Part shown: positions 1 through 35,043 of the stretch, in pieces
Layout of the letters: each line of letters opens with the position of its first letter
Position numbering within the stretch: position 1 is the stretch's first letter
Source: an uncultured virus (IMG/VR IMGVR_UViG_3300030202_002165)
Lineage: Duplodnaviria; Heunggongvirae; Uroviricota; Caudoviricetes
Virus record (IMG/VR): IMGVR_UViG_3300030202_002165
Reading direction: 5' to 3' (one strand)
Length of the DNA: 64,000 nucleotides
The notes under the pieces: generated by a model
What the model was told of the DNA's origin: nothing
Seen by the model: the letters and a program-made list of their open reading frames with translations, nothing else
Database searches by the model: none
Translations under genes and position numbers: made by a program

Positions 1-333
1 AAAGCTTGTCCACATTTAATAGAAAAACATATGAGATGTGGTAAGTGTGGATGTATGATAGAGCATAAAGCTAAATGGAGAACAACTACATGCCCAGATG
101 ATCCCCCTAGATGGAAACCGTTAGATCAAGGTCCGCAAACTAAAGCAGAAGCAGCGTATTTTAATATGCAAAAAATACAGCATGCACAAGAAATTCTTAA
201 AAGAGAAGCTCAAGACGCTAAAAGAAAAAAGTTAAATATAGCACTTTCAGAACCTGTAGATATAACTGCAGAAGAAATAGAAGAATATAAGAAAAATAAA
301 GAAGCAGGATATACTGACTACGAAAATGTCTAA
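1..333 (+). CDS. Cys-rich putative Zn-binding phage protein (5'-truncated by window)
   Basis: Frame is open from base 1 (KACPHLIEKHMRCGKCGC...KAKW...CP...W), so the true start lies upstream of the ATG at 31; CP/CxxCGC/CP pattern. Confidence 0.55.
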   Translation, partial: KACPHLIEKHMRCGKCGCMIEHKAKWRTTTCPDDPPRWKPLDQGPQTKAEAAYFNMQKIQHAQEILKREAQDAKRKKLNIALSEPVDITAEEIEEYKKNKEAGYTDYENV

Positions 334-547
334 AAAACTTATGATTTATAAGTTAGCTAATAAATATAATTTACCTCTTCAAAAAGTTGAAGAAATAGTA
401 AATTATCAATTTAAATATGTAGCCAAAATTATGAAAGAAGGAAATTTTGAAGCTGTTAGATTACCTTATTTTGGAAAATTTTCTGTAAACAGTAATAGAA
501 TTAAACATATAACTAATTTAAAAAATGGCAAAAAAAATAATATATAA
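326..547 (+). CDS. HU/IHF-like DNA-binding protein
   Basis: 73 aa, basic, helical N-terminus then VRLPYFGKFSV (HU/IHF 'V.L.GFG.F' strand motif); IHF-like genes near terminase are typical of crAss-like phages. Confidence 0.75.
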   Translation: MSKKLMIYKLANKYNLPLQKVEEIVNYQFKYVAKIMKEGNFEAVRLPYFGKFSVNSNRIKHITNLKNGKKNNI

Positions 548-1350: not shown

Positions 1351-1628
1351 TGGATTTTTTAGAAGATTTAGAATTATATAATACAGCAATGGATAATGCG
1401 TATAATGTTATTACTGGTAAAATAACAATAGAGCAAGTTTATGTTGAATTAGAAGATGCTGAAGAAGATCTAGAATTCCCTTTACCTTTTAATCCTTTTT
1501 TACATGAGGATGTTAGCGATGCAGAAATAGATTTAATCATTGAGCATTTTATAGCATTAGAAGAATATGAAAAATGCCAAGAGCTGGTTAATTGTAAAAA
1601 AGAAGTAGATGTTACAAAACACGAATAG
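1350..1628 (+). CDS. Acidic hypothetical protein
   Basis: TAATG coupling with upstream gene, overlap with TerL start; EEYEKC UVR-like helix motif. Confidence 0.55.
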   Translation: MDFLEDLELYNTAMDNAYNVITGKITIEQVYVELEDAEEDLEFPLPFNPFLHEDVSDAEIDLIIEHFIALEEYEKCQELVNCKKEVDVTKHE

Positions 1629-3573
1629 AGCTAGGCCTGCTGCAATTGCATTCTTAAAAAATGGCGTTTATACTAACGCTTTACCAGGTACAAAAGATTA
1701 CTACGATTATTGGGACCAAGAGGCTAAACGATGTGTATATGGATATACAATAGACGATTTTCATATTACCGGATTTCATTATTTTTATTTAAATTATTGT
1801 CCTATAGATAGGGCTATTGATGAGTTAATGCCAGATGGTACTATACAGTCTAAACGTGAAAGAAGTTTTCCAAGATTTTATGATGGAGATTATCAATATT
1901 TTCATCAAATAGATAAAGCTAGATCAGAAAATAAACATATGATTGTTCTAAAAGCTAGACGTAAAGGTTATTCTTACAAAGCTGGAGCAATGCTTGCGCG
2001 AAACTATTTCTTTGTCCGTAATAGTAAAAACTTTGTCTTTGCATCTCAAAAAGAATACTTAATTGGTGATGGTCTTTTATCTAAAGCGTGGGAATTTCTA
2101 TCATTTATAGATGATCATACAGCTTGGGCGCAACCGCGTTTAAGAGATAGAGAAATGCATAAAATGTCAGGATATAAAAAGAAAGTTAATGGGCTTGAGA
2201 TTGAGATGGGTATGAAATCTCAAATAATGGGAGTTTCATTAAAAGATGCACCCGACAAGGTGAGAGGTAAGGCGGGAGAACTTGTTTTCTTTGAAGAAGC
2301 TGGTTCTTTCCCTGGCCTCCTAAAAGCATGGGAGGTAACAATGCCTACGATGAGGCAAGGTGCAAAAACATTAGGATTAATGGTAGCTTTTGGTACAGGC
2401 GGTACAGAAGGAGCTGATTTTGAAGCTATGGAAGAAATATTTTACAATCCTGCAGCATATGATTGTATGGAATATGAAAATATATGGGATGAAGGAGCCA
2501 TGGGTAGTAGATGTGGTTATTTTATTCCTATACAAACTAACCTGGACGGATTCATAGACGATCAAGGAAATTCACTAGAAAGCGATGCTATTGAATACGA
2601 AAAAGGTATGAGGGAAAAGAAAAAGGGAGCTGCAGACGCAAAATCATTAGACCAATATATTGCAGAACACCCTTTTTCTCCTCAAGAAGCTACATTACAA
2701 GTAACAGCTAATTTATTTGATGTTGCATCTTTACAAGAGCAATATAATAAAATAAAATCTAATAATTTACAATCTATTGGAACTATCGGTAGATTATATT
2801 ATGATAAAAATGAAGAAATAAAGTTTAAGATTGATGGAGATCTTAGACAGATTATAAAGTTTCCACATAGGAAAGATGATGATACTACTGGTGGAGTTAT
2901 TGTATATGAATCTCCATATAAAAATGAAAAGCAGCAAGTACCTTTAAATATGTATATTATTTGTCATGACCCGTATGGGCAAAATCAATCAGCAGACTCT
3001 ACATCTTTAGGAGCGGCTTATGTTATTAAAAGACCTAATAATATATCTCATCCAGATGATATTATAGTTGCATCTTATGTAGGTAGGCCAAAAACACAAG
3101 ATGAATATAATAGAAATCTATTTATGTTAGCAGATTATTATGGATGTAAGATAGGATTTGAGAACGATCGAGGAGAAGTTATAGCCTACGCTAAACGACA
3201 TAGAAAGTTACATAGATTACAGGAAGAATTTGAGATGTTAGATAAAAAAGAACTTAGAAGTAAAACAGTAAAACGTCAATATGGAATGCATATGACAGAA
3301 GCAAGAAAAAGACAGGGAGAAATTTATATTAGAGATTGGTTAAATTCTCCACGACATAAAACTGAAGATGGAAAATATACGTTAAATTTGCATAAAATAT
3401 ATGATCCTGCGTTCTTAATGGAACTAATTAAATTTAATCACGTAGGTAACTTTGACCGTGTAATGGCATTTATGATTGGGATGTTTCATACTAGAGAGCT
3501 ATATAATGCAGAAATTAAAGAAGTATTAGAAGATAATGCTACTAATAGCTGGTTTGATACAAACTATTACTAG
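1609..3573 (+). CDS. terL: Terminase large subunit
   Basis: Walker A LKARRKGYS, Walker B VFFEEAG, GTGG coupling motif, RNase H-like nuclease with ICHDPY and GNFDRVMA, as in crAss-like TerL. Confidence 0.95.
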   Translation: MLQNTNRARPAAIAFLKNGVYTNALPGTKDYYDYWDQEAKRCVYGYTIDDFHITGFHYFYLNYCPIDRAIDELMPDGTIQSKRERSFPRFYDGDYQYFHQIDKARSENKHMIVLKARRKGYSYKAGAMLARNYFFVRNSKNFVFASQKEYLIGDGLLSKAWEFLSFIDDHTAWAQPRLRDREMHKMSGYKKKVNGLEIEMGMKSQIMGVSLKDAPDKVRGKAGELVFFEEAGSFPGLLKAWEVTMPTMRQGAKTLGLMVAFGTGGTEGADFEAMEEIFYNPAAYDCMEYENIWDEGAMGSRCGYFIPIQTNLDGFIDDQGNSLESDAIEYEKGMREKKKGAADAKSLDQYIAEHPFSPQEATLQVTANLFDVASLQEQYNKIKSNNLQSIGTIGRLYYDKNEEIKFKIDGDLRQIIKFPHRKDDDTTGGVIVYESPYKNEKQQVPLNMYIICHDPYGQNQSADSTSLGAAYVIKRPNNISHPDDIIVASYVGRPKTQDEYNRNLFMLADYYGCKIGFENDRGEVIAYAKRHRKLHRLQEEFEMLDKKELRSKTVKRQYGMHMTEARKRQGEIYIRDWLNSPRHKTEDGKYTLNLHKIYDPAFLMELIKFNHVGNFDRVMAFMIGMFHTRELYNAEIKEVLEDNATNSWFDTNYY

Positions 3574-3644
3574 TGATATATTTATAAAAAAAGCTTAAAT
3601 ATTTATTCACTTATTAAAAATTGAGATAAATTTAATTAAATTTG
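3569..3644 (+). promoter_or_regulatory. Putative late promoter P1 (upstream box plus Bacteroidota -7 element) for portal
   Basis: ACTAGTGATATATTTATAA at 3569-3587 and TAAATTTG (TAnnTTTG) at 3637-3644, 6 nt before the portal ATG; same architecture at 6454 and 11025. Confidence 0.7.
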
Positions 3645-3650
3645 TAGATT

Positions 3651-5981
3651 ATGGGATACGAAAAAATACCTAGACAAAAACTTCCAATGTCTAAGAAGGG
3701 AGAAAAATGGAGACGCGAATGTGTAGAAGCCTACATAGACTTATCCAACCAAGGTACTGGATATACATCTAGTAGGGAAGACTTAAGAAGATTTTATGAT
3801 TACTATAACGGTATAATTGATGAAGGCGATTATAGATACGTATTACAACCTTACGGGAAATCTCGGAAAAATTTTCCATCCCAAATGCGTAATTATCCCA
3901 TAATTAAACCTATAATTGATTTACTTTTAGGAGAGAAGTCCAAAAGGCCTCTCAATTATACCGTTACAGTACAAAACTCTGACACTGTCACTTTAAAGGA
4001 ACAAGCTTTAAATGATATGTTAATGGAAAACTTTAAAAAACAATTTGTTAATGAGTTAGGCGAAAAGGGTGTTGAAACCGGTATGGATCCTATGGAAGTA
4101 CAAGTACCTGAGCATATTTTATCGATGTTTGAAGATTCATATGTAGATAATAGAGCTATATTAGGACAAAAAGCTTTAAACTATATTATGTACAACGAAG
4201 AGCTAAGAGAAAAGTTTAATAAAGCATGGTTTCATTTTTTAGTTTCTGGGCAAACTTATACCTTAAGAGGTGTTAGAAATGGAGAAACTTTTTATGAAGT
4301 ATTAAATCCAGTAGATGTAGATTATGATTTAGATCCAGATTTAGATTATGTAGAAGATGGAGATTGGGCTTTAGTTAGAAAATGGGTACATGCTTCTTCA
4401 GTTATTGATAATTATTATGATTATTTATCTGAAGACCAAGTGTTAGAATTAGAAAATCCTACTCATTCTGAAACTGATAATTACTTTTTATATGCTAGTG
4501 CTGCAAGTAAAGATCCAAATTCTTATAGGAATAGACTAGTAGAAGTAATTAATGTATATTGGAAATCAAGAAAACGTGTAGGCTTTATGGCTTATGTAGA
4601 TCCAATGACAGGCCAAATGGAAGAGCAAGAAGTTGAAGATGGATATAGAATGCCTATGGAATTAAAAGAAATGGGTGCAAAACTAGAATGGCTATGGGTA
4701 AATGAAGTATGGCAAGGGACAAGAATTGATGGGAGATTTTATATAAATGTTAGACCAGTTCCTAATCAAAGGCAATCAATAGATGATGCGTCTACGTGTA
4801 AACTTCCAATTAATGGGAGAAGATATTCAAATATAAATACTTCAAATATATCATTGGTTCAATTAGGAATTCCTTATCAATTGAATTATAATATTTATAA
4901 ATATAGATTAGAGTTAGCAATTGCTAGAAGTAAAGATATTGTTGCTCAATTTGATATTAATATGATCCCTAAAAAATGGGATATGGATAAATTTATGTAT
5001 TATGTAGAAGGTACAGGAATAGCATGGGTAGATTATAATAAAGAAGGAATACAATTATCACCTCAGCATCAATCTGTACTTGATATGTCTATTAAAACAA
5101 TAGAGCAGTATATTGTTCTTCTTAACTCTATTATGGAAGAGTGGGAAAAATTGTCAGGAGTTAGTAGACAAAGACAAGGAGAGATTGGACAATATGAAGG
5201 TAAGTCAGCATCTCAACAAGCTATTGTACAATCTTCTCATATTACTGAAGATTTATTTAAAAAGTTTGAAGGCATGGAAAAAAGAGATATGCAAGCTTTA
5301 TTAGATTATTCAAAAGAAGCTTGGCATACTGGTAAAAAAGCTATGTATATAATGCCTGATGGCACGCAAGAATTTTTAGACATAGGTACTGTTAATTATA
5401 TGGAAGCAAATTTTGGAGTATTTGTATCTAACTCTGGAAAAGATCAGGAAAAATTAGATATGATAAAAGGAATGTCACAAGCTATGATTCAAAACGGATT
5501 ACCTGCATCAGCTGCTATGGAAATTTTTGAATCTGATAGTTTCCCTATTATTAAAAGTAAAATTAAAAAAGCAGAAAAAGCTCAAGAAGAATTAGAACAA
5601 CAGCAACAACAAGCGCAACAGCAAATAGAGCAGCAAAAATTACAAGCAGAGCAAGAAAGAATTCAACTTGAATTAAACGAAAAACAAAAAGATAGAGATA
5701 ATGCAATTAGAATTGCTTTAATTCAATCAGAAGGAGCGGATGTAGCGCAAAATGTTAAACAAGCGAAAGACATAAAAGATTTTACAACTTCTTTAAAAGA
5801 AATTGAAATAAAAAATCTAGCTCAACAGGAAGTAGAAAGATCTAATAAAGCAAGTGAATCTATTAAAAGGGATGAGTTAAAAATGAAAGAAAGATCAGAT
5901 CGTTTAAAAGCCAGAACAGAAAATAAAAAGATGGCTTCATCAGAAAGAATTTCTAAAAATAAACCTAAAACGTCACAATGA
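3651..5981 (+). CDS. Portal protein
   Basis: Directly after TerL; 776 aa; NYPIIKPIIDLLLGE, WVNEVWQG.RI, SGVSRQRQG motifs of crAss-like portals; coiled-coil C-terminus. Confidence 0.9.
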   Translation: MGYEKIPRQKLPMSKKGEKWRRECVEAYIDLSNQGTGYTSSREDLRRFYDYYNGIIDEGDYRYVLQPYGKSRKNFPSQMRNYPIIKPIIDLLLGEKSKRPLNYTVTVQNSDTVTLKEQALNDMLMENFKKQFVNELGEKGVETGMDPMEVQVPEHILSMFEDSYVDNRAILGQKALNYIMYNEELREKFNKAWFHFLVSGQTYTLRGVRNGETFYEVLNPVDVDYDLDPDLDYVEDGDWALVRKWVHASSVIDNYYDYLSEDQVLELENPTHSETDNYFLYASAASKDPNSYRNRLVEVINVYWKSRKRVGFMAYVDPMTGQMEEQEVEDGYRMPMELKEMGAKLEWLWVNEVWQGTRIDGRFYINVRPVPNQRQSIDDASTCKLPINGRRYSNINTSNISLVQLGIPYQLNYNIYKYRLELAIARSKDIVAQFDINMIPKKWDMDKFMYYVEGTGIAWVDYNKEGIQLSPQHQSVLDMSIKTIEQYIVLLNSIMEEWEKLSGVSRQRQGEIGQYEGKSASQQAIVQSSHITEDLFKKFEGMEKRDMQALLDYSKEAWHTGKKAMYIMPDGTQEFLDIGTVNYMEANFGVFVSNSGKDQEKLDMIKGMSQAMIQNGLPASAAMEIFESDSFPIIKSKIKKAEKAQEELEQQQQQAQQQIEQQKLQAEQERIQLELNEKQKDRDNAIRIALIQSEGADVAQNVKQAKDIKDFTTSLKEIEIKNLAQQEVERSNKASESIKRDELKMKERSDRLKARTENKKMASSERISKNKPKTSQ

Positions 5982-6454
5982 TAGATCTAGACAGGCAATT
6001 TGAAATAATAAAACAAGCTACTGCAGAAGGATATAAAGGAAATTTTAGCGATTTAATAATGCAAGAAGCGCAAGCTTTACAGCAACAACAGCAGCAACAA
6101 CAACAACAAAATCCTGAGCAGCCTCAAGTTCAACAACCTCAACAACCAATGCCTGCAGCAATGGCGCCCCCAGCACAAGAAGGGGCAGGTGATTTAATTC
6201 AATCATATCAAGATGCTCCTCCAGGGGTAGCTAATAATCCTGTAGGAGAAAATGTTTCAAATGTAGTTTCAGATGCAAGTTCTTATCAAGATGGGGGAGT
6301 TTACAGGGTAGCAGATATGATGTCGTACAAGAAAGGAGGCTATACAGATGCAAAAGTTGACTCTAGAGCAGAGAAAATTAGAGAAGATGTTATCAAAATG
6401 GCATTTCAAGATAAAAAAAAGAATGGCGGGTATAAATCAAAATACCACTGGTAA
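5978..6454 (+). CDS. Q/P-rich low-complexity protein, putative internal head protein
   Basis: ATGA overlap with portal stop; poly-Q; YQDGG, YKKGG and KKNGG motifs shared with cargo genes. Confidence 0.6.
   Translation: MIDLDRQFEIIKQATAEGYKGNFSDLIMQEAQALQQQQQQQQQQNPEQPQVQQPQQPMPAAMAPPAQEGAGDLIQSYQDAPPGVANNPVGENVSNVVSDASSYQDGGVYRVADMMSYKKGGYTDAKVDSRAEKIREDVIKMAFQDKKKNGGYKSKYHW
6080..6109 (+). repeat. CAA/CAG trinucleotide tract (10 Gln)
   Basis: cagcaacaacagcagcaacaacaacaacaa read directly. Confidence 0.9.
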
Positions 6455-6525
6455 GTGTTATATAATAAAGGAAAAACCAAAAAACCAAAAACTATAAAAA
6501 ATATTAATATAATTACTTAAATTTG
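6454..6525 (+). promoter_or_regulatory. Putative late promoter P2 for scaffold-MCP operon
   Basis: AGTGTTATATAATAAA at 6454 and TAAATTTG at 6518-6525, 64 bp spacing, intergenic. Confidence 0.7.
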
Positions 6526-6547
6526 TAACCTAAAACAATAAATATAT

Positions 6548-7678
6548 ATGAACCCAAATGAAAAAATACAACTTGACGACATCACATTTGATGATGTTAT
6601 CGGTGGTGAGGGAATAGATACGCTCCCTACAGAACTAGCGGTTGAAGAACCCACAAAAACTGAATCTTCAGATGAGCTTGAAAAAGATATTGAAGGTAAG
6701 AAAGAAGAAGTAAAAGAAGAAAAAGAAGAAGAACCAGAAGTACAGGAAGAAAAACCTAAACTTAAAAAGGTTACCGAGGATGATGAAGAATCTTCAGATG
6801 AACTTGAAGAGGATTCAAAAGAAGCAGACGTAAGTGTTGTGCATGAAGTATTAGGAAAGCTTGGCTTTGAAACAGAAGGCATGGAATATGCAGATACTGC
6901 AGAAGGTCTAGCTAATTTAACTGAAGATATAGCTTCTCAATTAGCAGATGAAAAAATGGAAAATACTTTAGAAAAATTTCCACTAGTTAAAGATCATTTA
7001 CAATATGTTTTAAATGGAGGAGAATCTCAAACTTTTATGCAAGCATATGATCCTAATCTAGATTATACAAAAATAGAACTAGGAGAAAGTGATGTAAGAA
7101 GTCAAAAAGCAATTTTAGGAGATTACTTTACAGTAAAAGGACATGATCAAGAATTTATTAAAGAATTATTAGAAGATTATGAAGATACTGGAAAATTACA
7201 TAATAAAGCGGTTCAAGCAAAAGAAGCTTTAGCTAAAGTTCAATCACAGCAAAGAGAACAAATGTTAATCAAGCAGCAAGAAGAAGTTGCAGGCCAACAA
7301 AAAGAATTAAGAGAATATTGGGAAGGTGTAGCAGACACTTTGGAAAAAGGTAAAGATTTTTCAGGGTTGAGTATCCCAGAGAGAGAAAAGGGTAAATTTT
7401 ATTCTTATCTTTCTGCTCCTGTTAATAAGGAGGGCTACACACAACGTGATTTAGATCATGGTAAAGCGCCAATGGAAACTAAATTAGCAATAGATTATCT
7501 AATGTTTAAAGGATTTAATCTAGAGCAAATTATAAATACAAAGGCAAGTACCAAAGCAACTAAATCCCTGAGAGATAAGATTGCTAGAAACGAAGAGAAA
7601 GTTAAAAGTTCTCGGGCTAAGTCTAGAAAGAGAAGAGAGAATGTAGATTTTGATGATCTTGATCTTAGTAAATTGTAA
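6548..7678 (+). CDS. Acidic scaffold-like protein preceding MCP
   Basis: Very E/D-rich N-terminus, coiled coil, basic tail, immediately upstream of MCP as in crAss-like phages. Confidence 0.7.
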   Translation: MNPNEKIQLDDITFDDVIGGEGIDTLPTELAVEEPTKTESSDELEKDIEGKKEEVKEEKEEEPEVQEEKPKLKKVTEDDEESSDELEEDSKEADVSVVHEVLGKLGFETEGMEYADTAEGLANLTEDIASQLADEKMENTLEKFPLVKDHLQYVLNGGESQTFMQAYDPNLDYTKIELGESDVRSQKAILGDYFTVKGHDQEFIKELLEDYEDTGKLHNKAVQAKEALAKVQSQQREQMLIKQQEEVAGQQKELREYWEGVADTLEKGKDFSGLSIPEREKGKFYSYLSAPVNKEGYTQRDLDHGKAPMETKLAIDYLMFKGFNLEQIINTKASTKATKSLRDKIARNEEKVKSSRAKSRKRRENVDFDDLDLSKL

Positions 7679-7716
7679 ACAACGATGAGTTGTATTAACC
7701 TTAAAAATAATTAAAA

Positions 7717-9153
7717 ATGAGCGGAACAAACATTAGCGTGCAGAAAAATTACTATAATGATGCACAAATGACAGACATGAACAGTCTATCAAACGCGCTA
7801 TTGGCTCGTCCAACAGAATTATCTCCGATAATTACTCACTTGGCAGGAAAAGACGATAAAAGGTTTCCACTATCTTTCTTAACGGAAGGTGTTGGTAATG
7901 TTAAGTCTATTGACAGATTGGAGTATGAATATCGTGTGAAAACTCATACATTGAAGACGAGACCATTAGCAACAACAAATGCAGGGGGTAGCCTTGGTTT
8001 AGGAGGAGCAACTTTTAACTTAATCTTCCCAGACAAGCACTTTGTATTTCCTTACGTATTAATTAACTCTGTTGGAGAACAAGTTAGAATTATGGCAGAG
8101 CCAGTAGCTTCAGGCGGTAACTGGTCTTATTCATGCCAACTAGTTGACCCAGATCCATTAGCAACTTTATCTTCAGGATTTACAGTTGGAGATCTTTGGG
8201 CTAAAATGTATGCACCGGTAGGAGTAGACTTCTCTAGAGGTAATGCTTCAAACTGGGAAACTCCAGGAAAAGTTCGTAATAAACTTACAACAATCAGAAA
8301 GTCTTACCATATGTCAGGTAACGCTAAAGATTTTGTAGCTGAGTTTACTTTACCAACTAAAGGAGGTAAAACTACAAAACTTTGGATGGACTATGAAGAG
8401 TACACACACATGCTTAACTTTAAAGAAGAGTGTGAAATGTACTACTGGTACGGACAAAAAACTTATGATGCTGCAGGTCAAACTTTCATGAATGACGAAA
8501 ACGGTCAGCCAGTTATGGTTGGACCTGGTCTTCTTGAGCAAATTATCAATAAAGATACTTACTCTACTTTAACAGAGTCTAAGATCAAAAATATTATTGG
8601 TGATTTATTTTATGGAATGACTGATGCATCGAAAAAACAAGTAACTCTTTACACTGGTACTGGCGGAGCTAGAGAATTTGATGAAGCATTAAAATCTCAC
8701 TTTGGTGGTGCTGCTAACTCTTGGAAAGTAGGTGGAACAGATCGTTTCATTACTGGATCAGGAAGAAGCTTAGGTTTGACTGGTTACTTTACAACTTACG
8801 AGCATGTAGATGGACACGTAGTAAATGTGGTTAAATTACCATTATTTGACCATGGTCCAGTAGCACAAGCTCGTGATAAGCACCCTGTTACAGGTTACTC
8901 AATGGAATCTTACAGAATGGTATTTGTTGATCAATCAAATTATGATGGTCAAAATAACCTTTCAATGCTTTCTAAAAAAGGCAGAGAGATGATGAGATGG
9001 TGTGTAGCTGGTTCAGTAGTTCCTAGAGGATTTGATTCATCTTCTTCTAGAGCGTCTGATGTAGACGGTGCAAGTGTTCACATGTTAAAAACAGCTGGTA
9101 TCATCTTAAGAAGATTTGATACTTCGCTAGACATTACATGTAACGCTGTTTAA
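7717..9153 (+). CDS. Major capsid protein (crAss-like, HK97 fold)
   Basis: 478 aa; RNKLTTIRKSY, GPGLLEQI, LYTGTGGAREFD, KLPLFDHG, SYRMVFVD, SDVDG motifs of crAss-like MCP; followed by a terminator. Confidence 0.93.
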   Translation: MSGTNISVQKNYYNDAQMTDMNSLSNALLARPTELSPIITHLAGKDDKRFPLSFLTEGVGNVKSIDRLEYEYRVKTHTLKTRPLATTNAGGSLGLGGATFNLIFPDKHFVFPYVLINSVGEQVRIMAEPVASGGNWSYSCQLVDPDPLATLSSGFTVGDLWAKMYAPVGVDFSRGNASNWETPGKVRNKLTTIRKSYHMSGNAKDFVAEFTLPTKGGKTTKLWMDYEEYTHMLNFKEECEMYYWYGQKTYDAAGQTFMNDENGQPVMVGPGLLEQIINKDTYSTLTESKIKNIIGDLFYGMTDASKKQVTLYTGTGGAREFDEALKSHFGGAANSWKVGGTDRFITGSGRSLGLTGYFTTYEHVDGHVVNVVKLPLFDHGPVAQARDKHPVTGYSMESYRMVFVDQSNYDGQNNLSMLSKKGREMMRWCVAGSVVPRGFDSSSSRASDVDGASVHMLKTAGIILRRFDTSLDITCNAV

Positions 9154-9190
9154 TGAGGCATTAATTTGCGTTTATATATATTGGTTTTTG

Positions 9191-9226
9191 ATTGAGGATG
9201 TGGGGGGAAACCCCCACGTCTTTAAT
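9191..9226 (+). terminator. Rho-independent terminator after MCP
   Basis: GATGTGGGGG-GAAA-CCCCCACGTC hairpin (9197-9220, one G:U, GNRA loop) followed by TTTAATT. Confidence 0.75.
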
Positions 9227-9292
9227 TAATTAACATATGCGGGGAGTTATTCTTTACACCCACCTAATTAAAACTTTAAAAGAACTATTATT

Positions 9293-10102
9293 ATGGATAA
9301 AAAAGTGTATTTAAGGCGAAAAGAGATTATGAATCATTTGCCTAAAGAAGTAAGAGCAGAAGCTGTTCTTAAACTAAGTAGTGTTTATGTAAATAGACAA
9401 CCATTAAATCCTTTTACTCGTGCAGACGAAAAAAAGTATTTAGATGGAATTTTGGATGTAGCTCCAGAGCATCCAGACTGGCCAAGGCATTCTAAAACGT
9501 TTTGGGCAGATTTAACTATTCCAGTGGGTTTTACTGGGGTAGAACTGGATATTAGCACAGATAAGGAAGGTAATCCTAGAAGTATTATGGATTATATTAA
9601 ATATCATTTTGCTATTAAGCATCCACATGTTGGATTAACAAAAGAAGAAATGAGTAAAACTTCGCAAAAGCGTTTTTATATTCATGATGAGTCTAGAGAT
9701 GTAAAAAATAGAAACTCAGAAATTCAACGTAAAAAAGATGCAGATAAAGAATTTATTAAACTTTCATCAGATCCAAAATCTATGAAAAGAGTTCTTAGAA
9801 TTTTATCAGATGCAAATCCGGATAGATTAACTGAAGATCAAATTGAAAATGCTTTATACGATTTAAAATCAAAAAGTCCTGTAAAATTTGTAAAAATTGC
9901 TACAGATAAAAACTTAACATTTAAAGCTGAGATTGAAGAATTAGTATCAGCCGGAGTGTTAAGAAAAATTGGTAATCAGGTAATTTTTATAGATGAAGTT
10001 ATTGGAGACACTGTTGAAGATGCGGTAGTATATCTAAAAGATAAAAAGAATTCAGGACAGTTAACAATAATGAGAGCAAAATTAAAAGAATTAGCTTTAT
10101 AA
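9293..10102 (+). CDS. Conserved crAss-like protein downstream of MCP
   Basis: Position after MCP; NP.SIMDYIKYHFAIKHPHV and C-terminal IGDTVEDAVVYLKD patterns. Confidence 0.7.
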   Translation: MDKKVYLRRKEIMNHLPKEVRAEAVLKLSSVYVNRQPLNPFTRADEKKYLDGILDVAPEHPDWPRHSKTFWADLTIPVGFTGVELDISTDKEGNPRSIMDYIKYHFAIKHPHVGLTKEEMSKTSQKRFYIHDESRDVKNRNSEIQRKKDADKEFIKLSSDPKSMKRVLRILSDANPDRLTEDQIENALYDLKSKSPVKFVKIATDKNLTFKAEIEELVSAGVLRKIGNQVIFIDEVIGDTVEDAVVYLKDKKNSGQLTIMRAKLKELAL

Positions 10103-10103
10103 C

Positions 10104-11228
10104 ATGAATGTAACTCAAATGCATTTAGCAGTACAGCAAGGAGTGGATAAAATAAATTCACTCCAAGCTGACTTGCTGCTGTCTGAAGAAATAGATTTAG
10201 AACTGAATAAAGCTCAGGCTAAATTTATTAATTTAAAATATGGAATAAATAATAAGTATCAACTAGGGTTTGAAGGTAATCAAAAACGTATAGATGATTT
10301 ACGTGTTCTTGTATCTGAATATGAAGATATAGCTACTTACAAAGAGCAGTTAAAAAGTAAGATTTGGGTAGATAGTTTTAGATTACCTTTAGATTATATG
10401 TATTTAATTAATCAACTTACAAGAGTTTATACAGATCAATGTTTACCTATGTCGTGGGGTATATCTTATCCAGATGATGTATATTATTTTCGAGTTAGTA
10501 TGACAGATTTTGTTACTAATGAGCAAACTCAAATTATCGATCAATTATGGATGTTTGATGATCCTCAGAATGTTTCAGGACCTACTTCATATCAATTATG
10601 GGACAATACTAATTCGCACACTTTCCCAACAGGAGTAGCAGCCACACAAGCTGAAATATTAGCATCAGGAACAGCAGGAGCAATTATGAATTGGCAAACT
10701 ATAGGACATTTAACTTATCCTGATGAGATAATTATTATAATTGATCCGATGTTTTATCCAACATTAACTGCATCTTTAGGTACAGCAACAATTGTAGGGT
10801 TAGATAGTTTAGGGGCTACAGTATCTACTTACCCATTAAAAAAGACACAAACAGCATATTCAGAGAAGAGAGTTCCAACTAGTACAGCAACATTGACGTT
10901 GGAATCTAATTATTCAAAGTTTGTACAGCAGGATGATATAATGAATTTATTAGGAGATCCTTTTAATACTACAAAACATACTGCTCCTCTTTACACAGTA
11001 AGACAAGATCAAATTGATATTTACACTAGTGATATATTTATAATAGATAGTGTAAAATTAACATATTTAAGAAATCCTAGAGAAATTTCATTATCTTTGG
11101 GGATTAGTTGTGAACTACCCGACCATACTCATAGGGAGATTGTGGACATGACCGTGAGCAGTATTTTAGAATCTATTGCAGATCCAAGATATAAATCTCA
11201 TGAAGCCGAGGTAAATAAAAATGAATAA
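10104..11228 (+). CDS. Tail ring / head-tail connector protein
   Basis: N-terminal EEIDLELNKAQ...FEGNQKRIDDLRVLV and C-terminal LTYLRNP...CELPDHTHREIVDM, typical of crAss-like ring proteins. Confidence 0.7.
   Translation: MNVTQMHLAVQQGVDKINSLQADLLLSEEIDLELNKAQAKFINLKYGINNKYQLGFEGNQKRIDDLRVLVSEYEDIATYKEQLKSKIWVDSFRLPLDYMYLINQLTRVYTDQCLPMSWGISYPDDVYYFRVSMTDFVTNEQTQIIDQLWMFDDPQNVSGPTSYQLWDNTNSHTFPTGVAATQAEILASGTAGAIMNWQTIGHLTYPDEIIIIIDPMFYPTLTASLGTATIVGLDSLGATVSTYPLKKTQTAYSEKRVPTSTATLTLESNYSKFVQQDDIMNLLGDPFNTTKHTAPLYTVRQDQIDIYTSDIFIIDSVKLTYLRNPREISLSLGISCELPDHTHREIVDMTVSSILESIADPRYKSHEAEVNKNE
11025..11099 (+). promoter_or_regulatory. Putative late promoter P3 embedded in ring-protein CDS
   Basis: 19 nt exact copy of the P1 box (11025-11043 = 3569-3587) and TATCTTTG at 11092-11099, 64 bp spacing; about 150 bp upstream of the 11250 gene. 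Confidence 0.7.
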
Positions 11229-11249
11229 GTAATTTAAAAAAATAAGAAA

Positions 11250-12203
11250 ATGGCAAGACAACTTTTAGTCGGCACAGATGTATTGGCTGCAAACGCAGGA
11301 GGAATACAACTCCTTAAAAAGGACGCAGCTGGAGAACCAGTAGTATTAACAGCTACGGATGATCTAGGATCAGCTCCAGAAATAAAATTTTGTAGAACAA
11401 TAGTAAATGGTCAAACAGGTTCAAACATATGTTCACCTTGGATTCCTGGAAAGGATATTATGGGATGGTCAGGTGTTTCAGGAGTAGCACAAACAGCTCA
11501 ATCAGTAGCAATAACATGCATACTTCCAACAGCAGCAGGTAATACTGTTACTTTGAAAGTAATTGATAAATCAACTAACACAGAACCTTTTCCAAGAGAG
11601 AATATTGAATTCTTAACAGGAGGAACTGCAAATGCAACAGCAACAAATATGAATACTGCAGTAGCAGCTCATATTGCAGTAAATGGTTACAAAGGTATGA
11701 TAGCTACAACAGGTGTAGCTGGAGCTGTGGTAACAATTACAGGACATACATATGCAGGACCAACAGCAGCAGGATATAATTCACAAACAAATATCGAAAT
11801 AGCTTTTGATCCAGGTGTAGATGCAGCAGCAGCTGTAACTGTAGTGGATACTCCAGCAACTTCAACTTTAGGTGATTTATTTGTGTTAGCAGACTTTGAA
11901 AAGGACTTATCAGCAGAAGCTGTTGGTGATTACTACAGAGTACAACAACCTAATAATACAACTTATTATGTTAACAGTGCTTTAGGTAAACCTTACGATG
12001 TTTATACAATGACTTGGAGATCTGGTTACGGTAATGGTCAAATCAATAAAGTAGATAATATGCATTATTTACATATTGCAGTACCATCAGCGCCAGGAAC
12101 TTGGCTACAAACAGCAGGAGCAACAGCTCTTGAAGTTCAACTGAATGGAACAGGTGGATATTTATTCCATACTCCAGCAGGAACTAGTACTGTAGTACTT
12201 TAA
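11250..12203 (+). CDS. Structural protein, probable auxiliary capsid (decoration) protein
   Basis: A/T/G/V-rich beta protein in the syntenic slot of crAss-like auxiliary capsid genes; has its own promoter and terminator, implying high expression. Confidence 0.6.
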   Translation: MARQLLVGTDVLAANAGGIQLLKKDAAGEPVVLTATDDLGSAPEIKFCRTIVNGQTGSNICSPWIPGKDIMGWSGVSGVAQTAQSVAITCILPTAAGNTVTLKVIDKSTNTEPFPRENIEFLTGGTANATATNMNTAVAAHIAVNGYKGMIATTGVAGAVVTITGHTYAGPTAAGYNSQTNIEIAFDPGVDAAAAVTVVDTPATSTLGDLFVLADFEKDLSAEAVGDYYRVQQPNNTTYYVNSALGKPYDVYTMTWRSGYGNGQINKVDNMHYLHIAVPSAPGTWLQTAGATALEVQLNGTGGYLFHTPAGTSTVVL

Positions 12204-12216
12204 TATTAACTAACAT

Positions 12217-12260
12217 AAAGGGTTATAGAGAGCATTCATGTTTTCTATAGCCCTTTTTTT
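12217..12260 (+). terminator. Rho-independent terminator
   Basis: AAAGGGTTATAGAGAGCA-TTCA-TGTTTTCTATAGCCCTTT long stem with G:U pairs, ending in a T7 run. Confidence 0.85.
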
Positions 12261-12800: not shown

Positions 12801-15800
12801 ATGGCTACTTGTCCTACATGTTCTAGTGTATCCTTTGCTTCTGTTACAGCTACGCAATGTAGTTCAACGTGGTCAATAACACTAAATTCATGTAATCCGT
12901 TTTTACGAGTAACAACTTTTATAGAATATGAGCAAACAGGTTGGGGTCTTCAGCCTAATTGGTGGGAAAATGTAGAATTAAAATACGATCCTAGTACTCA
13001 CCATTATCTTTCTGATACTCTTCAAGGTTATTACCATCAAGAAGTTTCTGGTCTTGGTTTAGACGATAAAACTAGTTATACTGCAGGGTCATTACTTTTA
13101 GCTCATCAGTGTAGCTCAATTTCGTATTTTCAAAAAAATGGATCTGGAAATTATAGAATTAAGGTTGTTACAGATTATACAGATGGTACTGTTTGTACAC
13201 AATATTCAAATACTTTAGCGATTACAATTGGGGGAGCCTCTCCAAATCCTGTAGATTTAACATTAAATGAATCTTGTGGATGTACTACTAGTGATGCTAC
13301 TTTTGGCGCTGACGCTAAATTAGCATATAATTATTATGATGGTACTCCTACTTGCGCAGCAGGATGTCGCTTTGAAAGTTGCCCTACTTTTTTAATAGAT
13401 TCAACAGGAGACGTTGTATATTCATTACCTACAGATATAATAGGACAAGCTGGTAGAACAGTAAAATTATTCGATGCATCTACTGTATTAGGAGTTCCTA
13501 CTTCTAAAGGGATTGCTGCAGAGAATAATCGTATGTATATTTCAGCAGGTATAGACTCAGGCACATGGCCTACTAGTCATGAGTATCTTGTAGAGTTATC
13601 TTATGACTGGCCTGGAACACCTTCTTTAGCTGGTGCAACTGCTACATCGTTTAAAATTGGAAAATTTGATTATACAGGACTAACTTGGACTTCAAATGCT
13701 CTTCTTGGAGGTACTCCAACAACTGGTATGAGGCAACGATATATAGAAGCTCCTAATGCTATAGGTAATTATTCAATAGGATTTACGAGTGGTAGAGTTC
13801 TTGCATTGATGCCAAAAACAGTTATGTATGAATTAAATGAGGGCTATCCAGGAGCGTATACATCAATAACATATGGAGGATTTTTTAATCCTGCAGTTCC
13901 CGCAAGTTATGAATATGGCTTAATTTGTGATTGTTCTTACAATAAAACAGGAGAACCTTACTTATTAGAAGGGTTGTGCTTGTTAAACTTACATCCAGCT
14001 AGCATGGCGGATCCAGACACAATTGGGGCAGCAGATATTAAACCTTTAATGATGTTTCCTGAAAAAGGTATTTATACAACAGCAGCACGTAACTATGGAC
14101 TTCAACATACAGGAGGATACGGAGCAAATATTGCAGATAACGCAAGTGGTATAAATGGGTCAATGATCAGTGACTATGGTTTTACTGCGGCTTATAACTA
14201 TTATACAAAAAGTTCAGGAGATGCAATATGTGGTTTTGCAAATGGTGGTATTTCTATATGGACAGCTATACAATCCCAAACCGCAATAGCTACAGGTGTC
14301 AGTTCTTCACCGTGTAGTGGAAAAGCAGATTGCCCTCCTTTTTATCACAGTTCAGATGCAACTGCTCCTAACGCTACGACTGCATATCCTAAATTTTTAG
14401 AAAGATTTGAGTATGCAACAGGTGATGCAAATTCTGTACACAGATACCCAACTGTACATATTGAAAAAGCACAACGTTTAAGATTTGTAGATGGAACTTG
14501 CAATACTGTAGACGCAAATTCAATTTGTACCGATGGAGAGGGATGGTATCATATAGCTTCGAAAGAACTGCACCATGAGATATATGATTTATGGAGTACT
14601 ACTAATCTAATATCTCCAGTATTTAGATCTGCTTCAAAACAGCACTGGGCCCATGCTATAAAAGGATTAGGACTAGTTAGCAGATCTTCACATACAAGTT
14701 ATTTAGATATATATGAGCAATCATTTTTTATAACTTCGCATGAAATTCCGCATGCAGATAACCAGACGTGGATGTATTCGTTTGAGCCATTTACTGTAAA
14801 AGCACAATCTGCATTAATTCCTAGAAAAATAGATCATGCTTATACCGGCAGTCCTTTAGCATTATGGGAAGTTTATGATGCAACATCATGTATGGGAAGA
14901 ACTGGAGGAGCTCCGTGTGCAGATCCTCTAGCAATGAATTATGATCCAAATGCACTTCTTGGAAATTCGCCGTCTGGATATGAAGGACAATTAGTTGCTA
15001 CTTGTTTATATTGTGATTTAGCGTCAGGAAATGTTGAAGGCACGGCTCCAGGAGATGATGGACTTTCTGGTGATTTAGAAGAGTCTTTTAAACTTGTAGA
15101 TATATCTACTACTCCGGCAACATGGAGTAATTGGGGAGATGGAACTATTACGATGAGTGTAGACCTGATGCCGCTTTTTGCAGCGTCATTTCCAAATCCT
15201 GCTGTAAATTGGAGATATAAAGCAGAATTATATAGAGTTAATGGCCCAGGTCTTGGATGGCAAGATCCTATGTCGTATATAGTAGCAGGAGGTATACAAG
15301 ATCAGTTGACTACACCTACTGTAACTTTTGCATCATCTACTTATCCTGTCCCATTATTAGTACCAGAAGGTCATTATAGTATTAAATGGTCGATTAATGT
15401 AATAACAGCTGGAGTATATGAAATAGAAGAATGTTGGTGGGAATATCCAGCATCAGTGGCCTCTTCTAATCAAGAAGCTAATCCTCCTATTTTTGCTCTC
15501 CTAGAAGTTGTTCCAAGCTTATTTACTATGACTGTTAATGTGTATGATACTACAAGAGGCGTAGTACTTCCTAATCTGTATCCGGGAGCAGGCTTATATG
15601 CCCCTCCTTTTCAGCCCGGATCACTGTCTCACGCTTGTATGTATGAAGGATCATGTATAGACGCAGTTACAGGATCTATTGTTACAGAACCTAACTTTAA
15701 TACTCCAACACTTTGCAATAGCGCAGGACATACTTGGCTAGGGTATGATCCGATAGCAAATGTAGAAGATGTTACTTCCACACACTTTGGAACTGGCCGT

Positions 15801-18800
15801 AACTATGCTGACAATGCAGCGCCAATGTCTTTTACTCATCCTTATCCGGTACTTTCAACTCCAGTACCTAATGGCTATCTCCAGTCAGGATACACAATGA
15901 ATTATTGGACAACTGGTGCCGGAGTAGAAACGTCGCCTACGTGGTTTAATATAGATCAGGGTTCTATGTGGCCTTCAGAGAAAATAGCTATTAAAGTTAC
16001 TTGGCAGTCTGGGTGGACTAAAACATTTGAGGTAAATACTCCTATAATATATGGTTATACACATGACGCAATTCCTCAGATAATGGGACACCAGACCCAG
16101 GCAAGTGTTATGGCATGTACGGGCGAAATGTGGCCAACAAGTCAATACCAATACAATGAAATGCAAAGGACCCAATCCATGTATAATATATATGGAAATC
16201 CTAATCCAGGTCTATCTCCGCATAGTGCTGCATCGGTGACTTCTATATCACTGCATAATCCTGGTGGAGGTCCTAATTATACATCAACGCACCCTATAGC
16301 AAATGATATGTACAGGCAAACATTTTTGCACGTTGAAGAAATGCCTACTATTCCAGCTCCTACTTATCCTATTACGACAATGTATGACGGAATCGCTCCT
16401 AGTACTACTAACTCTAATGCAGGTTGGATGGTTGGAATTGGTACTCATGAAATGATATATCACAGTATGACAGGCTATCTCCAAGATAATGGAACAAATC
16501 TATTACATGCAGGAATGATTATAGGAGGTTTTACAGGAGAGATTCAATTACGATTTGGAGTAACAAATACACCAGTTACTTGGGCTGATGCAAATCCAGG
16601 GCTAATGTTTACACCTAATTATAATTCTTATGGAAGTGGAGGAACAGGAGATTATGATAATCTTATAAATATGCTCCAAGCAGGTACTGGAGTAGCAGGT
16701 GTAAATGATTATACTGTTCCCGCTGGTCCAGCTCCTGGCGTAGGAACAGCCGGAACTATTACTGAGGGAGGTGTTAGTGGTATGCAATTCGCTGATTCAG
16801 TAGTTTATGGAAAAGATTGTCCTGTATGTTTACCTCCTTCAGGTGATTTAGCTTGTAGATGGAGTTCTGGGAATTCAACAGGAGCTCCTTTTATAGGAGG
16901 AACTGGCCCAGCTGTTAATCAAATAACGGGAGCAACTATAAATTATAACGCTATTAATTATATATCTAATTCCCCATTTGCAACTAATAGATCTACTGAT
17001 GATGGTTCTTGTTTAACATGTCATTGGAGCACTGGGAAATTAATGACAGATGCTTGGGACCCAACCGATGATAGCCCAGCACAGTGGGAATTTTATAAGA
17101 CAAATCCTCCTCCAGTAGGAAATGTTGGCGGAGGTCCTGGACAAGTTGATTATCAAACAGGTACAATAGTTGAAGGAACAGGAAATATTTTAGAAAACAA
17201 TTTTCCAGGAATAAATTATAGCAGTGTTAATACTTCTTCTATAAATATTTCAGACACATTAACTGGAGGTTTTGCAGCCCTTAGTTCTGATCCTGGATTT
17301 TATAAAATGGAAACTCCAGCTTCTACTTATCTAGGACATGCAATGGATACTTTAGATTATGGAGCAATAAACATTCAAACACATCTTTATAGTCAATTTA
17401 TATTAGCAATTGCCGTAAGTAAGGGAACTACACCTATAGGTTCTGATCTTCAAATGAGATATGAATTATCTAAATGGGATGGATCTGCATGGGTACTATG
17501 TGAAGAAAGAGTTACTACTGATTATTTTAATGGGGTTCCTACAACAATGCAATTATTTACTTCTGGTACTAGTACTACAGGAACAAATCTTAGTTATGGG
17601 CAATACAGATTAAGAGTTAGAGCAGAATTACAATCCGAACCATATACTGGACAAGAAAAAATATCTCTTTGTTTTCAAGACTTATTTTTTAATTTAAGAG
17701 TACGAGTATGTCCTATTCATTTTAATACAACAGATGGTATAAATATTCCAGATCCAAATGATCGAATAGTAGATCCTTCGCTTAACTGTAGTTGCTGTGA
17801 GGCTACAATACCTACTTTAACACAAACAGGAGATTGTACAGTAGGGTTTACACAAAATATTGTAGCTAATTTTGACTGTACTCCAGATAATTTAGCTACT
17901 GCAGTAACAGCAGAATTATGGTTTACTCCTGCGGGAGGTCCTGGAGCAGGTGTTGCTGTATCGCTTGGGAATTTTCCTGCAATAACAGGTGCGCCAGTAA
18001 CTTCAGGAACTATGGCCTTTGGCTCTAATGTTTCAGGAAATGCAGCTATTTACGGAGGAGATTATTATATAGTCTCTACTTATACAACAACTTCGGGAAC
18101 GTGTGATCCTTTAACTAGTCCGTCTATAACTGTAACACCTTTACCTACATGTGATTGTCAAGATAGTAATGCTGTAAACTGGTTAGCAATAGTTCCTAAT
18201 GGAAATGCAGATTGTGTAGGTGTTATTGGAGGAACTAATTATGATTGCTGTTCATACCCAACAAGCTGTGATCCTCCTGTAGTAGCTGTTGCAAGTGATC
18301 CGTGTAATGTAACTGTAACTCTTACAAATACTTGTGACTTAACAACTCCTCCTGACGATACTCCAGCTGTAAGATTACAATTTTTTGATCTAAGTACTAG
18401 TGGTGGAGTATATGTGGCGGCTCAATCTATGATTGTACATAGTCATAATATTGCTCCTGGAAATGTTACACCAAGTCTTACATACACACTTACAAATGAT
18501 TGTAGTGTAAATCAACTTGCTGCGTTTTCAGGAACTGGTCCATATATAGTACGACAAGTACAACAGTGGATACCTAATTATACAATTGAATCGTTTTCAA
18601 ATACTTTTGACTTATATTCTGGAACTAATCCAACAGGTACAACAGATTATCCTGTTATATGCGGGTGTACAAATCCAGCTGCTGGAAACTATAACCCGAC
18701 AGCAGCTTGTGACGATGGTAGTTGTCTTATCTCTGGGTGTACTGATGGAGGCTCAACTGGCTATGACGCTACTATAGGATTATATGCTACTGGAGCTTTA

Positions 18801-34329: not shown

Positions 34330-35043
34330 ATGACATTAGATGAGCTTGCTTATAACTTATTAAATTTGATTCGAGGAGGAAGACAAAGTCAAGATGAACA
34401 TATCTCTTTAGATCAGCTTAAATTCAATATTAAACATTATAGAGCAATGTTTATTCGAAGAGATTATGCTAAGCATGGATTTAATAGTAGACATATTGAA
34501 CAGGACTTAGGATGCTTAGAGCTTATAAAAGTAGATGCAACTAAGTGCTGTAACTTACCAGAAACTGGATGTGATGTATATAGAACTGTTAAGAAAATAC
34601 CAAAAACAGTTAGGTATAATTTTACAGAAGCTCTTTCTCATATAGGTGATATAACTGGGGTAGGTACGATACCTTTTGTACCATCTAATACAGTTCAATG
34701 GTTACCTTATGATAAATATACTAAAGGTAAGTATAAAGCATATATGATAAAAGATTATTTATATATTTACAATGCAGATGGTTTAAAATATATAAATGTA
34801 CGAGGAGTGTTTGAAGACCCATCTGATCTAGCTGAATTTGATTGTGGACCTTCATCATGTTACGATGACAGCGCTACTGATTTCCCTATGCCTATGGATA
34901 TGATAGAGAGAGTTAATTCTGGATTATTAAGTAAAGAGCTATCATTATTAGCGGGATCATTTAGTGACACCGTTAATGATAGAGCACAAGATCCTAAAAC
35001 TATAGTACCAAGAAATATTAATACAGGACAATCTCCAGAATGA
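34330..35043 (+). CDS. Tail ring protein (crAss-like)
   Basis: MTLDELAY...IKHYRAMFI...QDLGCLELIKVD...YLYI...INVRGVFEDP...FPMP pattern; position before IHF-like/tubular/muzzle genes. Confidence 0.7.
   Translation: MTLDELAYNLLNLIRGGRQSQDEHISLDQLKFNIKHYRAMFIRRDYAKHGFNSRHIEQDLGCLELIKVDATKCCNLPETGCDVYRTVKKIPKTVRYNFTEALSHIGDITGVGTIPFVPSNTVQWLPYDKYTKGKYKAYMIKDYLYIYNADGLKYINVRGVFEDPSDLAEFDCGPSSCYDDSATDFPMPMDMIERVNSGLLSKELSLLAGSFSDTVNDRAQDPKTIVPRNINTGQSPE

Follow-up and report, generated by a model that had tools for sequence, protein, structure and literature searches.

An upstream box at a constrained distance from a flavobacterial-type -7 element at three head-gene sites of a marine crAss-like phage: a putative activator-dependent late promoter class

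Among crAss-like phages, transcription has been described for the cultured phage phi14:2. According to the preprint text, its genes g091-g093 are classed as late, its middle and late genes are rifampicin-sensitive (attributed to transcription by the host RNA polymerase), and the transcript of its major capsid protein (MCP) is the most abundant (bioRxiv 10.1101/2020.03.07.982082). The same text describes the middle promoters (g070, g075, g108 and g110) as sharing a tripartite motif and reports no common motif for the starts that depend on gp66, the virion RNA polymerase. A crAss001 transcriptome study (PMC8375218) and a Crassvirales review (PMC10136315) also hold that late genes are probably read by host RNA polymerase. 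The promoter core of such hosts is known from F. johnsoniae, for which the main text of Baez et al. 2019 (PMC6847099) gives a -7 element of T-12 A-11 T-8 T-7 T-6 G-5 (TAHHTTTG) with starts 4-5 nt after it, AT-rich motifs at -18 and -28, and a -33 element that is weak in general. Here we examined a 64,000-nt stretch of the uncultured virus IMGVR_UViG_3300030202_002165 (hereafter the window), which carries the virion half of the genome of a marine crAss-like phage and in which an upstream box is followed by TAnnTTTG at three sites: before the portal gene (site 1, P1), before a gene of 376 amino acids (aa; site 2, P2), and inside a ring-protein-like gene that precedes a 317-aa gene (site 3, P3). 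On balance, the evidence makes it probable that these sites form a late promoter class that needs an activator bound upstream.

Gene order in phi14:2 is the same as in this phage. Both are crAss-like with flavobacterial hosts, and the promoters in the preprint text, as here, combine host-type -33/-7-like blocks with a third block upstream. Before the phi14:2 portal gene (g093) and g092, and nowhere else in that phage, we identified AAACGCTATTAAAA; at both, the distance from the G of its GCTAT to TATATTTG is exactly 68 bp. The phi14:2 middle promoters g070, g075, g108 and g110 carry an A-tract together with a TTG and a -7 element and lack the GCTAT box. In 57 IMG/VR relatives of phi14:2, 61 pairs of GCTAT and TAnnTTTG were counted within a range of 55-80 bp, and in 53 of them the distance was 67 (36), 68 (13) or 69 bp (4). 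The preprint text reports its motif before the portal and gp092 homologues of other crAss-like phages; it makes no mention of a late box ~65-70 bp upstream, and its supplements may already hold the g092/g093 5' ends. The three sites in the window differ from the tripartite middle promoter of that text in having no TTG block, and their box (ARTGNTATAT, no -33) differs from AAACGCTATTAAAA in sequence and spacing. The gut phage crAss001 has ordinary -33/-7 promoters before its portal gene and gp23, with no obvious common far-upstream box in these two regions. In Flavobacterium phage FpV4 (L285 5800-5931 and 8330-8450), GCTAT(G/T) lies 66 and 61 bp before TAnnTTTG upstream of the portal and the next gene, a spacing too inconsistent to count as a phi14:2-type box. 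The literature searched contained no account of an upstream box specific to late genes in crAss-like phages.

Architecture, conservation and selection of the element

An earlier note on this DNA, made from its letters alone, had placed an identical 19-mer (ACTAGTGATATATTTATAA) at two of the sites and a variant (AGTGTTATATAATAAA) at the third, each followed by TAnnTTTG 64 or 65 bp after the A of AGTG. All of these coordinates were correct on re-reading (Table 1). The box AGTGWTATAT occurs three times on the plus strand of the window (3572, 6454 and 11028) and not at all on the minus strand, and no further copy was found in a near-identical IMG/VR record of 89,487 bp (G001), which supplies the part of the genome beyond the window. 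TAnnTTTG occurs 55 times on the plus strand of the 64 kb; the chance of finding it at +63 to +65 of all three boxes is ~1.7e-8. In first-order Markov simulations (n = 150) the box appeared 0.47 times per window on average, three or more times in 2/150, and never in the bipartite form. ACTAGTGATATATTTATAA is the sole repeated 19-mer of the window (simulated mean 0.02). The bipartite element is thus beyond chance. With a weight matrix built from relatives, the scores of the three sites were 51.6, 42.6 and 37.5 bits, and the next best place in the window reached 10.0 bits. That next best place, at 36156-36235 in the Ring-1 gene (TGGTATATAT and TACTTTTG, 64 bp apart), was rejected as a fourth copy: its synonymous sites drift, both motifs are kept in just 6/26 relatives, and the protein sequence (WYIY ... 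YTFA) accounts for the letters of this look-alike.

To follow the element in relatives, a portal search of IMG/VR was used to gather 80 loci of environmental relatives at about 65% portal identity (range 62-90%), which were scanned for AGTGNTATA with TAnnTTTG 60-68 bp downstream. This analysis revealed 119 sites including those of the window (96 unique), 118 of which fell into three positional classes: 64 before the portal gene (class 1), 44 before the 376-aa gene (class 2) and 10 in the ring gene (class 3). Denominators were set independently of the motif, as the loci in which 110 nt or more precede the portal gene (74), those with the start of the 376-aa gene (47) and those with the C-terminus of the ring gene (21). 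Before the portal gene, exact AGTGNTATA was present in 63/74 loci and AATGNTATAT, in which a TAA stop replaces TAG, in 9 more (72/74); in the other two, L014 and L015, the TerL-portal spacer is too short for a promoter. Before the 376-aa gene the element was present in 47/47 loci, five with variant boxes (including AGTGACATAT in L014/L015), and inside the ring-protein gene A-R-TGNTATATTTATA was present in 19/21 relatives. Conservation of box and spacing, one of the checks that the earlier note had proposed, is therefore borne out at each of the three positions. The pattern was also scanned across IMG/VR, yielding at least 138 stretches. Among the 80 of these that were examined, 53 lay at the same three positions in relatives and the other 27 were unrelated and had no common flanking features.

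Across the relatives the box has the form A-R-T-G-N-T-A-T-A-Y, with AT-rich sequence after it, and keeps a single orientation throughout. The formulation AGTGWTATAT thus holds for the window, and the W at its fifth position is incidental. The distance from the box to the TA of the -7 element was 65 (42), 64 (18) or 63 bp (4) in class 1, 63 (38), 64 (3) or 65 bp (3) in class 2 (63 bp in 40/47 of the motif-independent loci) and 64 bp (10) in class 3, so that all 118 classified sites have the box on the same strand at 63-65 bp. The ~45 bp between the two parts are largely unalignable among relatives. The class 2 leader from TTTG to ATG has ten different lengths (15-29 nt), showing that indels are tolerated downstream and not between the box and the -7 element. 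These comparisons indicate that the spacing is under selection.

Site 3 lies within a coding sequence and allowed the nucleotides to be separated from the protein. Ring-gene homologues were gathered by the protein anchor DPFNTT, blind to the motif, and L014/L015, which lack the element, were dropped (n = 18 unique). Among degenerate codons at conserved positions, 7/9 inside the element were fixed as a single codon across the sequences, compared with 3/50 outside (Fisher one-sided p = 1.1e-5). The codons across box 3 are ACT AGT GAT ATA TTT ATA ATA, and those for D, I, F, I and I are each one codon in 18/18 sequences, with Ile written ATA at three positions. The Leu within the P3 -7 element is TTG in 18/18; other conserved Leu positions use 3-5 codons. 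The synonymous-site conservation at 11025-11043 that the earlier note had put forward as a check was therefore found. RNAalifold on 48 class 1 sequences gave 0 consensus pairs, and since no consensus RNA structure emerged, the constraint is argued to act on DNA rather than RNA.

The downstream half matches the host -7 consensus. TAnnTTTG is read as TAAATTTG, TAAATTTG and TATCTTTG at P1, P2 and P3 and is invariant in logos of 92 unique sites, which were selected by the motif; with motif-independent sampling it was present in 47/47 (376-aa gene) and 19/21 (ring gene) loci. The logos show TAnnTTTGTA, AAATTT at ~-21 to -16, AAAA at ~-33 to -29 and, at ~-50 to -47, another A-tract. The AAATTT and AAAA blocks (4-9 and 17-21 nt before TA) agree with the AT-rich -18 and -28 motifs of F. 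johnsoniae, on whose numbering the box falls at ~-77 to -68, with an AT-rich tail to -61. A claim that each TAnnTTTG is preceded by AATT was loose; what the sites have in common is a block rich in A and T, AAATTT/ATAATT, that lies 4-9 nt before TA. Absence of the -33 TTTG/TTG, usually about 19-21 bp upstream of the -7 element, was upheld: TTG was found 17-23 nt upstream in 3/48, 0/35 and 0/9 unique sites of the three classes, against a background of 10%.

This absence is meaningful within the lineage because the same phages keep the -33 element elsewhere. A Cpn10-like gene opens a cluster of small genes running into TerL, and the promoter upstream of it (G001 82940-82982 = L007 2940-2982, outside the window) has an A/T-rich block, TTTGGAA, 19 nt and TATCTTTG. 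TAnnTTTG is present there in 30/30 and TTG in 28/30 unique relatives, and the promoter fits the tripartite form of the phi14:2 preprint text. The contrast between this operon and the box sites therefore defines two promoter classes, one canonical and one with the box and no -33.

With the F. johnsoniae rule (G at -5) as given in the main text of PMC6847099, transcription is predicted to start at 3649/3650 (P1), 6530/6531 (P2) and 11104/11105 (P3). The portal ATG follows the P1 TTTG by 6 nt, as it does in 40/48 unique relatives. Because the predicted start is only 1-2 nt before the ATG at 3651, the portal mRNA would be nearly leaderless, with a leader of 1-2 nt. The same 6-nt gap was observed in phi14:2 g093, and gaps of 5 and 4 nt in phi14:2 g070 and g110. 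Metatranscriptome contigs compared with 3300-11400 (runs with 0.05-0.19 of sampled words) gave pieces of 90-99% likeness between 6567 and 11400, although contigs cannot show starts; almost no pieces lay on 3300-6551, an uncovered region that proves nothing. Taken together, conservation, frozen synonymous sites and the phi14:2 layout strongly support the reading of the three sites as copies of one functional bipartite promoter-type element.

Gene context and candidate partner proteins

The features around the sites are listed in Table 1. The 376-aa protein, at the position of phi14:2 g092, had no family match in Pfam or PHROG, and neither did the 317-aa protein. The 374-aa protein that hosts site 3 matched a phi14:2 ORF (open reading frame) at 82340-83065 (BLASTP E = 2.5e-8); its match to PF25710 (crAss tail ring protein 3/4) had E = 1.7e-5, short of the Pfam cut-off. 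Tail ring proteins 1 and 2 are also encoded in the window (Pfam). The statement of the earlier note that the last two units close with clear terminators was supported by a hairpin after the MCP gene and by another, followed by seven T, after the 317-aa gene; the first of these was not listed by a simple terminator scan because its T run is weak.

Table 1. Coordinates of the three sites, of the genes and terminators around them and of the candidate partner genes (window positions unless a record is named)
Feature	Position	Strand	Remarks
111-aa basic protein	G001 83839-84174 (L007 3839-4174)		just upstream of the window and upstream of TerL; canonical-promoter operon
Cys-rich DUF6171 protein	ends at 333		canonical-promoter operon; candidate partner
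HU/IHF-like protein	326-547	+	73 aa, net charge +11; Bac_DNA_binding, E = 6.8e-9 (Pfam); canonical-promoter operon
TerL	1609-3573	+	PHROG 6681, E = 2.9e-136; final gene of the upstream operon; stop TAG 3571-3573
Box 1	3569-3587	+	ACTAGTGATATATTTATAA; core AGTGATATAT 3572-3581; overlaps TerL stop TAG
P1 -7 element	3637-3644	+	TAAATTTG; 65 bp from A of AGTG
Portal	3651-5981	+	PHROG 6547, E = 6.5e-127; first gene after P1
ORF	5978-6454	+	TAA stop overlapped by box 2
Box 2	6454-6469	+	AGTGTTATATAATAAA; core AGTGTTATAT 6454-6463; overlaps TAA stop of ORF 5978-6454
P2 -7 element	6518-6525	+	TAAATTTG; 64 bp from A of AGTG; ATG 6548
P2 unit	6548-9153	+	376-aa gene, then MCP; gene order as in phi14:2
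MCP	7717-9153	+	PHROG 11589, E = 1.1e-84
GC-rich hairpin	9200-9217	+	GTGGGGG-gaaa-CCCCCAC after MCP, by reading the sequence; probable P2-unit terminator
374-aa gene hosting site 3	10104-11228	+	phi14:2 g089 homologue; crAss ring 3/4 match weak
Box 3	11025-11043	+	ACTAGTGATATATTTATAA; core AGTGATATAT 11028-11037; inside coding sequence 10104-11228
P3 -7 element	11092-11099	+	TATCTTTG; inside coding sequence; 64 bp from A of AGTG; next ATG 11250
317-aa gene	11250-12203	+	sole gene of the P3 unit
Hairpin, then TTTTTTT	12220-12253, to 12260	+	after ORF 11250-12203; intrinsic-terminator-like, ends P3 unit
158-aa basic protein	35040-35516	+	homologue of phi14:2 g073, annotated 'IHF subunit'

The conserved 111-aa protein encoded in the Cpn10-TerL operon is a candidate activator of the box promoters, with a predicted winged-helix fold. 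Pfam HTH_45 was detected in 15/33 members of its family (best E = 1.3e-5), and an AlphaFold2 model (AF2; mean predicted local distance difference test, pLDDT, 90.3) shows a helix-turn-helix with a beta wing. The top rows of a Foldseek search were the DNA-binding domains of MarR, OhrR, CadC and LexA, none at E <= 0.001. The family also has an invariant NTLNNY.K..KDK stretch. The HU/IHF-like protein might serve as an architectural helper, and the IHF-like proteins of the phage, among them the 158-aa protein (BLASTP E = 7e-5 to the phi14:2 ORF 66965-67471), may help late transcription, as the earlier note had suggested. Annotations in the syntenic cluster of crAss001 include a zinc-finger factor and a VpsT-like regulator as well as HU and Cpn10. 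When the small genes upstream of TerL were compared with phi14:2 and crAss001, only the Cpn10-like protein and a 173-aa protein (to crAss001 Gp16) were matched, and no common regulator could be named among them.

An acidic, all-helical 92-aa protein (1350-1628, net charge -21), whose gene overlaps the TerL start, is kept in most relatives. It was considered as a co-factor and set aside: the gene is absent from L014/L015, which are without boxes 1 and 3 and have the box 2 variant, and because these two loci keep box 2 the correlation between gene and boxes carries no weight. The 92-aa protein had no family, and its model (pLDDT 69.6) gave no fold match at E <= 0.001.

Further features of the genome were noted. 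Megablast of the window against a phage collection gave no match, and portal identity to the closest annotated phages is only ~30%. The window carries three giant ORFs (12801-24170, 36400-42840 and 49027-61380; 3789, 2146 and 4117 aa), the last of which is a homologue of the phi14:2 gp66 virion RNA polymerase at nearly twice its length. G001 is labelled linear and 100% complete; it ends and restarts within window positions 5056-7249 and is without ~2.2 kb, site 2 included. The true genome is probably ~91.7 kb and circularly permuted relative to G001. The replication module of G001 encodes two small SET-domain proteins on the minus strand (60101-60442 and 78148-78528; Pfam E = 1e-8 and 1.7e-7), and it also encodes a spore-photoproduct-lyase-like radical-SAM protein (63574-64434).

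Proposed mechanism and alternative explanations

We propose that the three sites are copies of one late promoter class read by the host RNA polymerase with its primary sigma factor. The downstream half would be a flavobacterial core, in which TAnnTTTG (-12 to -5) is preceded by an AT-rich block (~-18) and by A-tracts (~-31 and ~-48) and the -33 TTG is missing. The box would serve a sequence-specific activator as its docking site, and this activator would recruit RNA polymerase, or stabilize it, at a core too weak alone. Such an activator would most likely be phage-encoded and made from the Cpn10-to-TerL operon under its own canonical -33/-7 promoter, and it would switch on the portal gene, the 376-aa gene with MCP, and the 317-aa gene in a middle-to-late cascade. 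The pattern that suggests this is an oriented, specific site together with a core whose upstream hexamer is deficient, the two a fixed distance apart, and such a combination is a signature of activator-dependent initiation.

Several points weigh against this proposal. The phi14:2 clade keeps the -33 TTG in 38/43 unique sites, so the box replacing the -33 contact is not a general rule. Measured from the common GnTAT core, the spacing is 60-62 bp here and 67-69 bp in the phi14:2 clade, and therefore no single fixed helical phase is conserved; a separation of six helical turns, as the earlier note had it, fits this clade (63-65 bp) and fails for the phi14:2 clade (67-69 bp from the G of GCTAT). 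Since the flavobacterial -33 is weak in general, the cores might fire unaided, with the box modulating or repressing them. The box core TGnTATAT resembles an extended -10 and could be a promoter element itself. Dyads are the binding sites of many winged-helix regulators, but the box is asymmetric. Finally, we infer late timing by analogy with phi14:2, not from this uncultured phage.

A broader scheme that joins the two clades is tentative, and we hold it with somewhat less than even confidence. Flavobacteria-infecting Crassvirales would share a phage-encoded activator from the TerL-ending operon, with the 111-aa protein as leading candidate, which would dock on clade-specific boxes (ARTGNTATAT at ~-77 here, GCTAT(T/G) at ~-80 in the phi14:2 clade) and control a head-gene regulon of portal, the g092-like gene with MCP, and one more. 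Box and protein would co-evolve, the -33 contact would be dispensable in the present lineage, and transcription of the portal gene would begin 1-2 nt ahead of its ATG.

Four rival explanations were weighed, taken here in order of their weight. The box itself could be a -10-like promoter element, read for example by newly made RNA polymerase of the phage, by a sigma-like factor that the phage encodes or by an alternative sigma of the host, in which case each site would be two tandem promoters or a promoter with a downstream signal. In a sigma-70-type scan, 3554-3582 was listed as TTGATA-17-TATATT with TG upstream of the TATATT, the phage encodes the gp66 homologue, and our reading of the design given in the phi14:2 preprint text is that, if rifampicin blocks middle genes, the sensitivity of late genes cannot alone exclude a phage enzyme. 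However, class 1 sites keep the TGnTATA of the extended -10 (TGnTATAAT) and leave the last hexamer position, which is critical in a sigma-70 -10, free (T/A/C/G). Independent tandem promoters would need no 63-65 bp spacing maintained through heavy sequence turnover, a Pfam scan of 68 ORFs turned up neither a sigma nor a gp55-like family, and the gp66-dependent starts are without a common motif in the preprint text (bioRxiv 10.1101/2020.03.07.982082). We consider this explanation unlikely. Much the same low probability attaches to a negative or timing site, at which a host or early phage protein would silence competent cores until late, for example by looping or occlusion with nucleoid-like proteins. 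Its appeal is that flavobacterial promoters often work without a clear -33, as the main text of PMC6847099 describes, so that the cores could be constitutive, and that the phage encodes HU-like and IHF-like proteins. A site centred at ~-72 is nevertheless clear of RNA polymerase, contact between an activator and polymerase is the more typical setting for strict spacing and orientation, and the box stands on the strongest head-gene promoters, the P2 unit including MCP, whose transcript is the most abundant one in the phi14:2 preprint text.

Recognition of the box by a host protein, either a transcription factor or upstream contacts of RNA polymerase such as its alpha subunit, would make the sites strong constitutive promoters borrowed from the host. 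The conserved A-tracts at the UP-element-like positions ~-48 and ~-31 would fit such contacts, but the 27 IMG/VR hits outside the clade (of the 80 examined from at least 138) look like chance, and two phage clades that have TAnnTTTG in common differ in the sequence of the box and in its spacing, as expected of phage-specific partners; a borrowed host promoter seems improbable to us. An RNA-level signal (a terminator, a processing site or a 5'-untranslated-region structure at the TerL-portal junction and the other sites) is very improbable indeed. Boxes 1 and 2 do lie at stop codons, and in a subset of class 1 TerL-portal spacers (window 3582-3636) an inverted repeat, ATTTACC...GGTAAAT, brackets an A-rich centre, its pairs changing among relatives (e.g. 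AATTATC/GATAATT). Some of these sequences fold, but the 0 consensus pairs among the 48 class 1 sequences led us to reject a conserved hairpin as a general feature of the spacer. The repeat is absent from classes 2 and 3, and TAnnTTTG is the exact host -7 promoter consensus. Recruitment of host RNA polymerase by an activator bound at the box remains the reading we favour.

Comparison with known systems

Activator-dependent late promoters are already known as a kind; the element, its geometry and its distribution appear new. The middle-to-late switch of crAss-like phages is little described, and a cis-element of this type defines a late regulon and offers bait for its regulator. It can be tested directly in cultured phi14:2, which has the analogous box before g093 and g092, and would help to annotate transcription units in uncultured marine Crassvirales. 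The sigma factor of Bacteroidota is unusual, and to the few activator-dependent promoters described for it this element would add another example.

Middle promoters of phage T4 combine a MotA box at -30 with appropriation of sigma by AsiA, an anti-sigma co-activator. There, as proposed here, a host-sigma promoter that has no upstream hexamer relies on a phage-specific box in its place; the box described here is centred at -72 rather than -30, and MotA needs the anti-sigma co-activator. T4 late promoters instead carry TATAAATA at -10, which is read by gp55; the three sites show no consistent TATAAATA, and the 68 ORFs gave no gp55-like family. At class I promoters of Escherichia coli, CRP bound at -61.5 or -72.5 contacts the C-terminal domain of the RNA polymerase alpha subunit (alpha-CTD). 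The organism and sigma type are different and the present box is without dyad symmetry, but its centre at ~-72, its fixed spacing and the A-rich stretch before the core, where alpha-CTD could sit, resemble that arrangement.

The late promoter A3 of phage phi29 belongs to a Gram-positive host with sigma-A -35/-10 elements, and the p4 sites are inverted repeats from which early promoters are also repressed, according to the main text of PMC3100819. In contrast, the box here is asymmetric and present in three dispersed copies, and its activator is only a candidate. In that account a poor -35 at A3 is offset by the phage protein p4 bound upstream, with the nucleoid-like p6 helping (PMC3100819). 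As at the sites described here, a late promoter has a poor upstream hexamer, and there a phage activator stabilizes the closed complex. The same text has this activator made early and setting the temporal switch, much as in the cascade that we propose for portal, capsid and the 317-aa gene (PMC3100819).

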